Below are positions 13,942 to 33,499 of a stretch of 64,000 nucleotides of DNA, one piece after another. Where the stretch lies: positions 12,752 to 76,751 of the forward strand of contig NZ_JAPNJX010000001.1 of NCBI RefSeq assembly GCF_026626685.1, written 5' to 3'. Both the position numbers and the translations under genes were made by a program. Under the pieces are notes generated by a model. The model was not told the DNA's origin. It saw nothing but the letters and a program-made list of their open reading frames with translations, and made no database searches. This DNA is from Nannocystis sp. SCPEA4. Lineage in GTDB: Bacteria > Myxococcota_A > Polyangia > Nannocystales > Nannocystaceae. Position 1 is the first letter of the stretch. Each line of letters starts with the position of its first letter.

Positions 13942-15351
13942 ATGGCCGTGTGTCTCCTCGTCGCCTGCGGCGACGACAACCGCGCCGACACCAGCGTCGG
14001 GCCTGCCACGGCCACTGTGACCGCGACGATCACCGTCGGCACCATCACTGCCACCGGCAACCCGATGACCGAGGGAGCCACTCAGGGCACGGGTCCGACC
14101 GAGGGGACCGCCTCGGGTGGTGACACCGAGGGCACCAGCGAGTCCCCCCCGACCACCAGCAACGGCTCGATGACGAGCATGACCACCCAGGGCGGCCCGA
14201 AGTTCGACCTCGGCGTCACCCCGGACGGCGGCACCAGCTGTGCCGGCAACATGGACATCGACGAGAGCTTCATCTGGATCCCCGCCACCAGCGACGGCCT
14301 CGTCTCCAAGATCAACACCCGCACCCTCGTCGAGGAGGCGCGCTACCTCACCGGTCCGAGCGGCGCCACCGAGAGCGTCTCGCGCACGGCCGTCGCCGGC
14401 GACGGTCGCTTCGTCGTCGTCAACGCTCGCGGCACCGGGCGTTCGACCGCCGTCGCCGCCAACATCGCCGATTGCATCGACTTCAACGGCGACGGCCAGA
14501 TCACCACCTCGACCAGCGTCGGCGACATCAAGCCGTGGGGCACCGACGAGTGCGTCGTGTGGACCATCCTGCACGCCAACTGGTCGGGCCAGTACGTCGA
14601 GGGTCCGCGCGGGATCACGTGGACGATCGGCGACTACGACAAGGCCACCTGCACCTACAAGAACCAGAAGGTCTGGCTCGGCTTCGGCGCCATGCAGGCC
14701 GGCTCGGCCAACATGGTCCGCCTCGACGGTGCCACCGGCGTGCTCGAGCAGTCGATCGAGGCCACGGCCTGGAACGGCAGCGGCTACGCGCCCTACGGCG
14801 GCGCCCTCGACCCGCAGGGCAACGCCTGGTTCACCGGTCTGCGCGGCGAGCTCGCGCGCGTCAACACCTCCGAGAACCCGATCACGATCACGCGGATCCC
14901 CCAGCCGTCCAACATCCAGACCTACGGCATGACCGTCGACCGCAACGGCAACCCGTGGATGGCCGGCTGCTCCGGCCCGGTCTCCACCTACGACGTCCCC
15001 TCCGCCCAGTGGATCTCGGTCGCCGGCACCAACGCCTGCCACCGCGGCATGGCCATCGACCACAACGACCACGCCTGGGTCGCCGCCAACGGCCCGTGCG
15101 GCCTCGTCGAGATCGATGTCGCCACCCGCACCCTCGTCGCCTTCCACAACCTCGCCCAGTGCTCGACCCCGATCGGCGTCAGCGTCGACATCGACGGCTT
15201 CGTGTGGCTGGTCGACCAGGCCGGCTGGGCGTGGAAGATCGACCCGATGAACGTCGGGGCGATGCAGAACATCCCCGTCGCCGGCGACCACTACGTCTAC
15301 TCCGACATGACCGGCGGCCAGCTCAAGAGCGTCACCCCGCCGCCGGCCTAG
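13942..15351 (+). CDS. lipoprotein with Thr/Gly-rich linker and beta-propeller-like C-terminal domain
   Basis: Lipobox MAVCLLVACG and a low-complexity TATVTATITVGTITATG linker. Repeated aromatic/Gly blades suggest an NHL/Vgb-lyase-like propeller. Confidence 0.6.
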   Translation: MAVCLLVACGDDNRADTSVGPATATVTATITVGTITATGNPMTEGATQGTGPTEGTASGGDTEGTSESPPTTSNGSMTSMTTQGGPKFDLGVTPDGGTSCAGNMDIDESFIWIPATSDGLVSKINTRTLVEEARYLTGPSGATESVSRTAVAGDGRFVVVNARGTGRSTAVAANIADCIDFNGDGQITTSTSVGDIKPWGTDECVVWTILHANWSGQYVEGPRGITWTIGDYDKATCTYKNQKVWLGFGAMQAGSANMVRLDGATGVLEQSIEATAWNGSGYAPYGGALDPQGNAWFTGLRGELARVNTSENPITITRIPQPSNIQTYGMTVDRNGNPWMAGCSGPVSTYDVPSAQWISVAGTNACHRGMAIDHNDHAWVAANGPCGLVEIDVATRTLVAFHNLAQCSTPIGVSVDIDGFVWLVDQAGWAWKIDPMNVGAMQNIPVAGDHYVYSDMTGGQLKSVTPPPA

Positions 15352-32288: not shown

Positions 32289-32807
32289 GTGGTACCTCTG
32301 CGGGGCATGGGATTCTTCGACAAGGCCAAGCAGTTCCTCGGCGGCAAGAACATGGCGAGCGTCGCCATCACCGTCATCGAGCGTCAACCGGCGGAGACCG
32401 CCACCTTTCCGGTCACCGACTCGGTGCTCAAGGGCACGATGGTGATCACGGCTCAGCAGGACTGCACCCTGCTGGCGACCAAGTACGAGGTGTGGCTGTA
32501 CATCAAGAAGGACGACGTCGAGTCGCCGTTCCTCGCCGTCGCCGAGAAGGATCCCGATCCCAACGTCAGCTACTCGGACAGCTGCCTCAAGATGCCGTGC
32601 GACCTCAAGCCCGGGCAGGTCATCACCCAGCCGTGGATGGTGAGCGACCTCGACCTCGCCGGCATCCTCGCGCGCAACGGCTTCCCCGATCCCAACGCCG
32701 CGACCCGTGACTCGCGAGTGCGGCTCGTCGTCAAATGCATCGCCGACGTCAAGGGCTCGCCGTTCGATCCGAGCGCAGAGGTCACCGTCCGCCTCGCGCC
32801 GACCTGA
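32289..32807 (+). CDS. hypothetical protein
   Basis: 172 aa soluble protein. Start possibly at MGFFDKAKQF (32307). Confidence 0.4.
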   Translation: MVPLRGMGFFDKAKQFLGGKNMASVAITVIERQPAETATFPVTDSVLKGTMVITAQQDCTLLATKYEVWLYIKKDDVESPFLAVAEKDPDPNVSYSDSCLKMPCDLKPGQVITQPWMVSDLDLAGILARNGFPDPNAATRDSRVRLVVKCIADVKGSPFDPSAEVTVRLAPT

Positions 32808-32875: not shown

Positions 32876-33499
32876 ATGAACATCGACCTCTCGAAGTTTT
32901 TGACCGTGGCCGCGCTGATGAGCCAGGGCCTCGGCACAGCCGCCTGCACGATCAATCTCGGCAACGGCCTGACCGACACCAACATCGGCCCCGAAACCTC
33001 GACCACGAGCACGACCGGCACCTCCGACGATACGACCACCACCGACGGCGGGACCGAGGGCACCGCCACCGGCACGGACTCGAGCGTGCCGACCACCACC
33101 GAGGCGCCGACCAGCACCACCGAGGCGACCGCCGGCACCGCCACCGACGCCACTGGCGGCACCGCCACCGACGCCACCACCGGCGAGGGCTTCGTCTGCA
33201 GCGACGGCACCGCGCTCGAGAACCCCGCCTGGGTCTGCGACGAGAACCCGGACTGCCCCGACGGCTCCGACGAGGTCACCGGCTGCGGCCTCGAGGCCTT
33301 CACCTGCAGCGGTGACAAGAAGGAGATCCCCGCGACCTGGGCCTGCGACGAGGTCCCCGACTGCCTGGACAACTCCGACGAGGTCACCGGCTGCGGCCAG
33401 GAGGCCTTCACCTGCGCCGACGGCATCGAGATCCCGGCGGCGTGGAAGTGCGACACGGCTCAGGACTGCGCCGACGGCTCCGACGAGGCCGACTGCTGA
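32876..33499 (+). CDS. lipoprotein with Thr-rich linker and three LDL-receptor class A-like cysteine modules
   Basis: Lipobox-like AACT followed by a TSTTSTTGTSDDTTTT linker. Three CxxxxxCxDGSDE modules: CDENPDCPDGSDE, CDEVPDCLDNSDE, CDTAQDCADGSDE. Confidence 0.65.
   Translation: MNIDLSKFLTVAALMSQGLGTAACTINLGNGLTDTNIGPETSTTSTTGTSDDTTTTDGGTEGTATGTDSSVPTTTEAPTSTTEATAGTATDATGGTATDATTGEGFVCSDGTALENPAWVCDENPDCPDGSDEVTGCGLEAFTCSGDKKEIPATWACDEVPDCLDNSDEVTGCGQEAFTCADGIEIPAAWKCDTAQDCADGSDEADC

Follow-up and report, generated by a model that had tools for sequence, protein, structure and literature searches.

What might an animal-type receptor module do in a bacterium, and is it there in the form known from animals? 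This question is raised by a gene at positions 32876-33499 of a 64,000-nucleotide stretch of DNA (hereafter, the window) from the myxobacterium Nannocystis sp. SCPEA4 (contig NZ_JAPNJX010000001.1, positions 12,752 to 76,751). Its product, termed here the LDLa protein, carries three tandem modules of the low-density lipoprotein (LDL) receptor class A (LDLa) type, the textbook ligand-binding unit of animal receptors. The analysis presented below favors, with a probability of roughly 0.6, the reading that this is an exported, membrane-tethered protein with a putative ability to bind basic groups in a Ca2+-dependent manner. The modules appear to be a reduced form of the animal repeat, and the gene has a conserved neighbor encoding a truncated relative of the cell wall ligase MurE.

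The relationship to LDLa repeats was examined at the levels of sequence and predicted structure. The Pfam profile PF00057 matched the LDLa protein with 85.9 bits (gathering cut-off of 24.1; E=2.1e-24) in three separately significant stretches, the best of which, that of module 3, aligned residues 173-207 with profile positions 3-37 of 37. Orthologs scored between 72.8 and 83.8 bits, and no NCBIfam model matched the LDLa protein. A phmmer search of the PDB returned 53 sequences, all of them LDLa-containing (LRP2/megalin, VLDLR, LDLR, LRP4, ApoER2, CD320, LDLRAD3, and complement factor I). An AlphaFold2 (AF2) model of residues 106-207, built from a 14-row alignment of bacterial relatives, had a mean predicted local distance difference test score (pLDDT) of 80.3 and a predicted template modeling score of 0.46. 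Each of its modules contains two paired strands and a helical turn, as is characteristic of the small LDLa fold, in which a short beta-hairpin is succeeded by a loop and a helical turn around a metal site. When this model was compared to the PDB with Foldseek, the top matches were all tandem LDLa arrays (probability of 1.00, E down to 5.8e-9) and included those of megalin, LDLR, and VLDLR; the large root-mean-square deviation probably reflects free orientation between the modeled modules. In the full-length model, residues 1-104 had pLDDT values below 50 and the modules had values of 58-71. These results indicate that the modules are homologous to LDL receptor class A repeats, as had been proposed in a preliminary description of the window that was made from the DNA letters and named the PF00057 search as the check. 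The three calcium-cage motifs quoted there are exact: modules 1, 2, and 3 end in CDENPDCPDGSDE, CDEVPDCLDNSDE, and CDTAQDCADGSDE, respectively, and no further core of the CDxxxDCxDGSDE type occurs in any frame of the entire 64-kb window.

The cysteines of the modules depart from the classical pattern. Members of the LDLa family have six cysteines per module that form three disulfides (C1-C3, C2-C5, and C4-C6). The LDLa protein has 13 cysteines, namely Cys24 and four in each module that correspond to C2, C4, C5, and C6 only. In the HMMER alignment of module 3, 'gCGqeaFtCadGieIPaaWkCDtaqDCadGSDEadC' stands opposite 'eCDsahFrCgsGhCIPadWrCDgtkDCsDdaDEigC' of LRP2, and the third Cys of the latter falls on Glu186; the equivalent residue is Ala in the first module and Glu in the second. 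Module 1 lacks a Cys at the C1 position, which in modules 2 and 3 is taken by the last Cys of the preceding module (Cys137 of module 1 in the case of module 2), with a spacing, SDE-VTG-C-GLEA-F-T-C, that is compatible with C6 and C1 simultaneously. Because C3 is absent there can be no C1-C3 bridge, and the only pairings that the sequence would allow within a module are C2-C5 and C4-C6. The PROSITE signature PS01209, which reads C-[VILMA]-x5-C-[DNH]-x3-[DENQHT]-C-x(3,4)-[STADE]-[DEH]-[DE]-x(1,5)-C, has no match in the LDLa protein because it begins at C3; when this first Cys was freed, modules 2 and 3 matched. The control sequences, human LA4 and LA5, both matched the signature. Since it lacks the six cysteines per module that define the classical family, the LDLa protein is classified, on its sequence, as a variant of the family. 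The preliminary description had anticipated modules of about 40 residues with six cysteines, and neither holds: the modules measure about 35 residues each and abut without an inter-module linker. It had also held that the LDLa assignment would fall if the profile search were not significant and the Cys spacing did not fit the six-Cys topology. The first did not occur and the second did; likewise, the LDLa fold that it expected was predicted by AF2 and recognized by Foldseek, but the three-disulfide topology that it expected is absent.

In contrast to the N-terminal cysteines, the calcium site is complete in all three modules. The cage positions, which in the LDLR LA5 structure are an aromatic residue two positions before C4, the Asp after C4, the Asp before C5, and the Asp-Glu of the SDE motif, are filled by W119, D122, D126, D132, and E133 in module 1, by W155, D158, D162, D168, and E169 in module 2, and by W190, D193, D197, D203, and E204 in module 3. 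Each module thus reads aromatic-x-C4-D-x3-D-C5-x-D-x-S-D-E, and orthologs keep the cage residues, with the exception of the aromatic one in module 3. The module can therefore be described, as far as sequence goes, as a reduced two-disulfide form that keeps the C-terminal calcium-binding lobe. By analogy with the animal protein Tva, this lobe would be the functional part of the repeat: the binding function of Tva is reported to be carried by its C-terminal loop, and its N-terminal loop has been suggested to help maintain conformation (PMC9974445).

Orthologs of the LDLa protein were identified throughout the Nannocystaceae. No exact copy of the LDLa protein was on record in the assemblies. The nearest genome copy is that of N. 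pusilla (L132; 87% identity, same neighbors), while the ortholog of Nannocystis sp. ILAH1 is 72% identical and that of N. punicea FL3 (L100) is also close, with 88% identity in the module region. Remoter orthologs come from Nannocystis and Nannocystaceae metagenome-assembled genomes (MAGs), the isolate ST9, and Enhygromyxa salina. Orthologs begin at the same M[NK]IDL motif, and the LDLa protein could be aligned end to end with P0001-P0004 and with the copies at L039, L045, L047, L059, L070, L100, and L124. They have in common a highly conserved signal peptide of the form M[NK]ID[LF]xKFLxxA..M[SA]QG..[AG]C, a Thr/Ser/Gly/Asp/Glu stalk that drifts in both length and sequence, and between two and four modules of the four-Cys form. 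Relative to the LDLa protein, orthologs are 56-88% identical in their modules, 58-79% in their signal peptides, and 27-70% in their stalks. The stalk is the fastest-evolving part and the only one with in-frame indels. On these features, and on its place within about 2 kb of a truncated MurE gene, the LDLa protein can be assigned to a Nannocystaceae group of 'MxIDLxKFL' LDLa lipoproteins, unnamed and defined in the present analysis. The ortholog at L071 (about 1450-2043) has an in-frame stop within the conserved signal peptide (MNIDF*KF) that is either a sequencing error or the mark of a pseudogene.

A gene of this kind might be suspected of being an artifact, whether of eukaryotic contamination, of gene transfer from an animal in the very recent past, or of a spurious open reading frame (ORF) in high-GC DNA. 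The LDLa domain occurs mainly in animals, high-GC DNA is rich in long false ORFs, and some non-myxobacterial matches of the pattern scan described below resemble host DNA (the 'Verrucomicrobiales' locus L025 and the Endozoicomonas loci). However, the GC content at third codon positions (GC3) of the gene is 0.96, which matches the host genome (the window has a GC content of 72.6%) and is the usual coding signature in a high-GC genome. Moreover, the flanks are syntenic with those in Nannocystis genomes, orthologs are present in many Nannocystaceae with indels that preserve the frame and are confined to the linker, and the four-Cys form is typical of Myxococcota rather than of animals. Contamination, recent eukaryotic transfer, and a spurious ORF were all rejected based on codon usage, synteny, and ortholog conservation, and the chance that any of them applies is practically negligible. 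The long ORFs on the opposite strand, including one of 746 residues, are themselves usual high-GC artifacts.

How the protein might be held in the cell is suggested by its N-terminus. The signal-like segment MNIDLSKFLTVAALMSQGLGTAAC closes on Cys24, and every ortholog examined likewise has a Cys just behind its hydrophobic segment. In twelve aligned orthologs the total number of cysteines is 4n+1, with the additional Cys being the only unpaired one. The end of the segment, LMSQGLGTAAC, fits a relaxed PROSITE-style lipobox rule, though with Thr at position -3, where the standard lipobox [LVI][ASTVI][GAS]C would have Leu, Val, or Ile, and the LDLa protein and 5 of 11 orthologs pass this rule. 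The lipobox named in the preliminary description is thus plausible as a lipoprotein anchor but is not canonical. The -3 Thr and -1 Ala would also suit an AxA-type site, so that signal peptidase I might cut after T-A-A. The product would then be unanchored and soluble, either in the periplasm or outside the cell, and would bind Ca2+, perhaps as a mere buffer that has no specific ligand. The orthologs that fail the relaxed rule are in keeping with such secretion, and three calcium sites in 207 residues might buffer calcium, but three sites make a poor buffer compared to dedicated acidic proteins. Against secretion also stand the invariant unpaired Cys and the near-classical lipoboxes of remoter orthologs (LLSGC in L125 and LSSGC in L128). 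A secreted protein is therefore considered very unlikely, and lipidation is probably to be favored over cleavage by signal peptidase I.

Among lipoproteins of Myxococcus xanthus, Lys at position +2 is the mark of those in the inner membrane and Ala at position +7 that of those in the matrix (PMC3222651). The mature LDLa protein would have Thr at +2 and Asn at +7, and, under these rules, the outer membrane would therefore be its default location. From there the modules would be extended by a linker of about 80 residues, nearly all of them Thr, Gly, Asp, Glu, Ser, Ala, or Pro, that is predicted to be disordered. The Thr-rich character of this segment, previously pointed out, is borne out by 33 Thr within residues 25-140. 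The likeness that had been drawn to the linker of a second lipoprotein of the window, at 13942-15351 (+ strand), stands insofar as the latter has a lipobox (LLVAC) and then a Thr/Gly-rich stalk, but the resemblance is compositional only. That lipoprotein has only a weak beta-propeller (SBBP) match, and the motif HYVYSDMTGGQ at its C-terminus is found again in a tandem pair of paralogs (L070, 2636-6332) that lie just upstream of the LDLa ortholog of a Polyangia MAG.

These features can be joined in a mechanism. A lipoprotein-type signal peptide would be cleaved before Cys24, which would then be lipidated, and the protein would be placed in the outer membrane by default. The disordered Thr/Gly/acidic tether would hold the three abutting two-disulfide modules, each of which, when loaded with Ca2+, would present an acidic pocket beside an aromatic residue by analogy with animal LDLa repeats. 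This pocket would capture a basic group of a partner, be it Lys, Arg, or an amine, and three modules in a row may provide avidity. Several observations weigh against this reading. The lipobox has Thr at -3 and several orthologs fail even the relaxed rule, the sorting rules derive from Myxococcus, which belongs to a different suborder, and the disulfide pairing follows from homology only. The aromatic residue of module 3 varies among orthologs. In addition, the 'lysine necklace' of the animal repeats includes a third acidic residue, located three positions after C4 in the structure of LDLR with RAP, and modules 1, 2, and 3 have Asn, Val, and Ala, respectively, in its place. No experiment on any bacterial LDLa protein was found in the searchable literature. 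As regards other ligands, Nannocystaceae are described as producers of sterols; a link to sterol biology was considered and dropped, since LDLa modules generally bind proteins and basic groups rather than sterols.

The same parts could also serve outside the cell. Displayed on the surface or on vesicles, the modules might capture basic proteins of prey or of neighboring cells, or might sequester polyamines and cationic peptides or antibiotics. Binding modules at the tip of a long stalk of low complexity would suit such a device, as would the precedent of animal LDLa arrays such as that of megalin, which bind many polybasic ligands. Four-Cys arrays of up to 15 modules, many with a lipobox, are moreover expanded in predatory Myxococcota. 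However, no surface-export signal is known for lipoproteins of Nannocystis, the +7 Ala that marks matrix lipoproteins of M. xanthus is absent, and a single ortholog in a fixed neighborhood with highly conserved modules is more like a housekeeping component of the envelope. A capture device is thus an unlikely alternative to the membrane-tethered binder favored here. The roles proposed earlier, such as metal capture and interaction with prey, are speculative, as is an association with outer membrane vesicles.

Is the four-Cys module peculiar to this gene? Among 20 homologs recovered by a word-indexed search, those with bacterial signal peptides were all of the four-Cys form and four animal-like ones were six-Cys. 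A degenerate DNA pattern for CDxxxDCxDGSDE was then used to scan one genome per bacterial or archaeal species. This yielded at least 120 loci, a sample rather than a total, and the matches listed, to which the following counts apply, were overwhelmingly from Myxococcota. A total of 119 of 204 LDLa cores were four-Cys (lacking C3), including 108 from Myxococcota or old-style 'Deltaproteobacteria' MAGs, 10 from unclassified MAGs, and 1 from an Endozoicomonadaceae genome. Six-Cys cores (78 of 204) comprised all those from Actinomycetota, Marinimicrobia, Verrucomicrobiales, Dehalococcoidia, Salinisphaera, and Bradymonadia together with 47 from Myxococcota or old-style 'Deltaproteobacteria' MAGs. 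The named non-myxobacterial taxa and Bradymonadia are thus six-Cys with one exception. When 1.84 billion cluster representatives were searched exhaustively with a profile, 15,503 proteins were returned at E<=0.001. Among the best 149 of these 15,503, 23 had nearly all of their modules (up to 15 per protein) in the four-Cys form, many with a lipobox, whereas the other 126 were mostly six-Cys, many being giant animal-type receptors; mixtures were rare. These distributions indicate that the four-Cys form is a lineage trait, typical of Myxococcota and not peculiar to the gene at 32876-33499. The earlier statement that such modules are rare in bacteria accordingly holds for most phyla but not for Polyangia-type myxobacteria.

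Several matches of the scan merit mention in their own right. The contig of the 'Verrucomicrobiales' MAG (L025) encodes eight six-Cys modules and resembles animal DNA, three Nocardia genomes (L018/L022/L057) encode a single conserved C-terminal six-Cys module, and Endozoicomonadaceae that are symbionts of animals (L024/L056/L098/L106/L116) encode canonical six-Cys modules. Precomputed Pfam tables assign no family to the orthologs at L127 (6277-6894), L128 (5217-5720), and L132 (4313-4933). In a direct hmmscan, the copies at L127 and L128 match PF00057 with E=9e-24 and E=2.5e-20, respectively. Surveys built on precomputed Pfam tables therefore under-count bacterial LDLa proteins. No paper on bacterial or myxobacterial LDLa modules was found in the literature. 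A relative in Nannocystis exedens is named 'LDL receptor domain-containing protein' by NCBI, whereas the direct ortholog is annotated as 'hypothetical protein'. The domain as such is already detectable by databases; the finding is of value for the two-disulfide form, which is specific to the lineage, and for the ligase as a conserved neighbor. At the level of annotation the result is mildly interesting and no surprise for a domain specialist.

The strongest contextual clue, missed in the preliminary description, is the conserved neighborhood with a truncated MurE paralog (Table 1). This ligase is of the MurE subfamily (TIGR01085, 295 bits versus a cut-off of 257, profile positions 85-471) and aligns with E. 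coli MurE (1e8c) from residue 107 on. The end of trpF lies only 57 bp upstream and there is therefore no room for the absent UDP-binding domain. Among the matches listed, all 120 homologs of the ligase are 391-439 residues long, and the truncation thus appears to be a stable trait across Nannocystaceae; the copy of Nannocystis pusilla is 95% identical. The translation retains DNPR, the motif of MurE enzymes that add diaminopimelate. From its sequence, the ligase is unlikely to use the normal UDP-MurNAc-dipeptide as substrate.

In 16 of 17 distinct loci, an LDLa ortholog and a truncated MurE are no more than about 2 kb apart. They stand directly tail-to-tail in the window and at L132, L001/2, L100, L003-6, L039, L045, L047, L070, L113, L124, and L128. 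At L071, L125, and L127 a lipoprotein of about 346 residues without a family match stands between them, and at L131 (Enhygromyxa salina) they are on the same strand with a 577-residue lipoprotein in between. The locus L129/130 has no LDLa gene; its ligase gene is overlapped by an NlpC/P60 gene, beyond which lies VgrG. The LDLa ortholog at L059 adjoins a MATE-like gene instead of a truncated MurE. Outer flanks differ between genera. Most of the 17 loci were ascertained from the LDLa side, and when retrieval began from the ligase, 4 of 5 loci (L127, L128, L129/130, L131, and L132; the exception being L129/130) had an LDLa ortholog. The neighborhood is thus conserved beyond what would be expected from drift, with the qualifications that a near-zero spacer resists rearrangement and that convergent genes are not co-transcribed. 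It points to the cell envelope.

A more specific role can be derived from this neighborhood, namely that the protein is a periplasmic tether: anchored in the outer membrane and facing the periplasm, its pockets would bind, in a Ca2+-dependent manner, a stem-peptide amine of peptidoglycan, such as the one that is free in meso-diaminopimelate without a crosslink. The outer membrane would thereby be joined non-covalently to the peptidoglycan, in a process linked to the truncated MurE. The pairing of the two genes survives changed outer flanks, an inserted gene, and, in E. salina, a changed orientation; the DNPR of the ligase would fit a diaminopimelate substrate, the peptidoglycan peptidase gene of the exceptional locus relates to cell wall peptide metabolism, and a flexible linker of about 80 residues should span the distance to the wall. 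Yet the genes are convergent at most loci and hence not co-transcribed, tail-to-tail genes 0-60 bp apart are hard to split by rearrangement, and the locus count is biased toward the LDLa side. Furthermore, binding of diaminopimelate is not known for any LDLa module, and the L059 ortholog has a MATE-like neighbor. Such a tether is considered quite unlikely. An extension of the idea is more speculative still: the four-Cys LDLa lipoprotein and the MurE without domain 1, in some genomes with the lipoprotein of about 346 residues, might form an unrecognized envelope module of Nannocystaceae in which the Ca2+-loaded LDLa array recognizes free stem-peptide amines or a product of the ligase. Improbable as it is, if true it would give modules of the LDL receptor type their first function in bacteria and would represent a new kind of non-covalent link between the outer membrane and the cell wall. 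The membrane-tethered binder of basic groups, for which the partner is left general, remains the favored reading.

Table 1. Coordinates, in the 64,000-nucleotide window, of the LDLa gene, its parts, and adjoining features.
Feature	Position	Strand	Basis or remark
LDLa-module gene of the probable lipoprotein, whole (207 codons and stop)	32876..33499	+	ORF; GC3; PF00057 E=2.1e-24; ortholog start motif M[NK]IDL
Predicted signal peptide, lipobox-like end (MNIDLSKFLTVAALMSQGLGTAA ahead of C24)	32876..32947	+	Relaxed lipobox rule; invariant Cys; AF2 helix at residues 6-14
Low-complexity Thr/Gly/Asp/Glu-rich linker, residues 25-103	32948..33184	+	Composition; pLDDT <50; variable among orthologs
LDLa-type module 1, residues 104-137 (Cys108/121/127/137)	33185..33286	+	PF00057 stretch; alignment to LRP2/LDLR modules
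LDLa-type module 2, residues 138-173 (Cys144/157/163/173)	33287..33394	+	PF00057 stretch
LDLa-type module 3, residues 174-207 (Cys180/192/198/207)	33395..33496	+	Best PF00057 stretch
Hairpin filling the 53-bp spacer between convergent stop codons	33495..33548	.	RNA fold
MurE-subfamily ligase without N-terminal UDP-binding domain, 412 residues	33553..34791	-	Pfam Mur_ligase_M and Mur_ligase_C only
Gene for a 166-residue protein, no family match	32307..32807	+	Ends 68 bp before the LDLa gene; probably outside the feature

Between the two convergent genes, the hairpin has a folding energy of -27.3 kcal/mol (z = -4.8), and none of 200 shuffled sequences folded as well. It has no U-tract and was not called by a simple terminator scan; it is probably a bidirectional terminator. 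A scan for sigma-70 promoters found no sites, which is uninformative for a myxobacterium with a GC content of 72.6%. Upstream of the LDLa gene, the 166-residue protein has no Pfam or NCBIfam match, and its N-terminus, MGFFDKAKQFLGG, has a possible likeness to Spo0M-type proteins. Its counterpart in Nannocystis sp. ILAH1 is 95% identical, far above the conservation of the LDLa gene. As part of a conserved unit this gene was rejected: it occurs only in close Nannocystis genomes and is absent from the L003 locus, where a 173-residue gene near the LDLa ortholog is unrelated to it.

Other layouts around the truncated MurE were noted in relatives. In a metagenomic relative (L129/L130, 4001-8994), the truncated MurE overlaps the start of a gene for an SH3 and NlpC/P60 peptidase, with the gene for VgrG, a type VI secretion spike, next to it; this layout suggests that the truncated MurE family is linked to cell wall peptide cleavage or to type VI secretion immunity. 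The intervening predicted lipoprotein of about 346 residues, here called 'X' (L127, 5232-6272, - strand; also L071 and L125), has the conserved motifs GCAGGYLEG, HLCTVSH, YHHLMI, and FDTTGYRG. It has no match in Pfam and no sequence match in the PDB, and therefore offers no functional clue. At L003 (4522-8594), another metagenomic relative, the truncated MurE is succeeded by the 173-residue gene on the same strand, an Amidohydro_2 gene, a YcaO gene of 730 residues, and an ORF of 83 residues, an arrangement that looks like a cluster for a ribosomally synthesized and post-translationally modified peptide.

Compared to known systems, the LDLa protein shares with the animal repeats of LDLR (LA1-7), megalin/LRP2, and VLDLR a homologous sequence, the same predicted fold, an identical cage signature, the Phe-x-Cys and aromatic-x-Cys landmarks, and a tandem arrangement. 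It differs from them in having four rather than six cysteines per module (no C1-C3 disulfide) and no inter-module linker, with the last Cys of the previous module at the place of C1. Furthermore, the animal receptors are type I proteins with EGF and beta-propeller domains, whereas the context here is that of a bacterial lipoprotein. Closer in plan are LDLRAD3, CD320, and Tva, with three, two, and one module, respectively, all of which hold few LDLa modules at a membrane for purely Ca-dependent binding and whose families were all matched by sequence in the phmmer search of the PDB. For Tva, the loop that reportedly carries the binding function (PMC9974445) corresponds to the lobe that is retained in the LDLa protein. 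Those proteins have a C-terminal transmembrane helix and six-Cys modules, whereas the LDLa protein has a probable N-terminal lipid and a stalk of about 80 residues. Within the phylum, P0019 of Nannocystis exedens and many relatives have the same four-Cys module, often behind a lipobox, but in proteins of the P0019 type two modules are combined with an N-terminal domain that is helical and rich in Cys. Minicystis rosea (L062) and some Nannocystaceae arrays (L041 and L046) are canonical six-Cys, unlike the LDLa protein. What sets the family of the LDLa protein apart is the M[NK]ID[LF]xKFL signal peptide, the Thr/Gly-rich stalk, and the truncated MurE neighbor.

The significance of the finding lies in the prospect of a minimal natural fold, that is, of a bacterial lineage with a two-disulfide version of the LDLa repeat that appears to keep the calcium-binding lobe only. 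At 207 residues the candidate lipoprotein is a compact model that should be easy to express, and its conserved genomic partner, the truncated MurE, provides a lead to function. If binding of calcium and of a defined partner proves true, this would be the first function for an LDLa domain outside eukaryotes and would inform the debate on eukaryote-like domains in Myxococcota.

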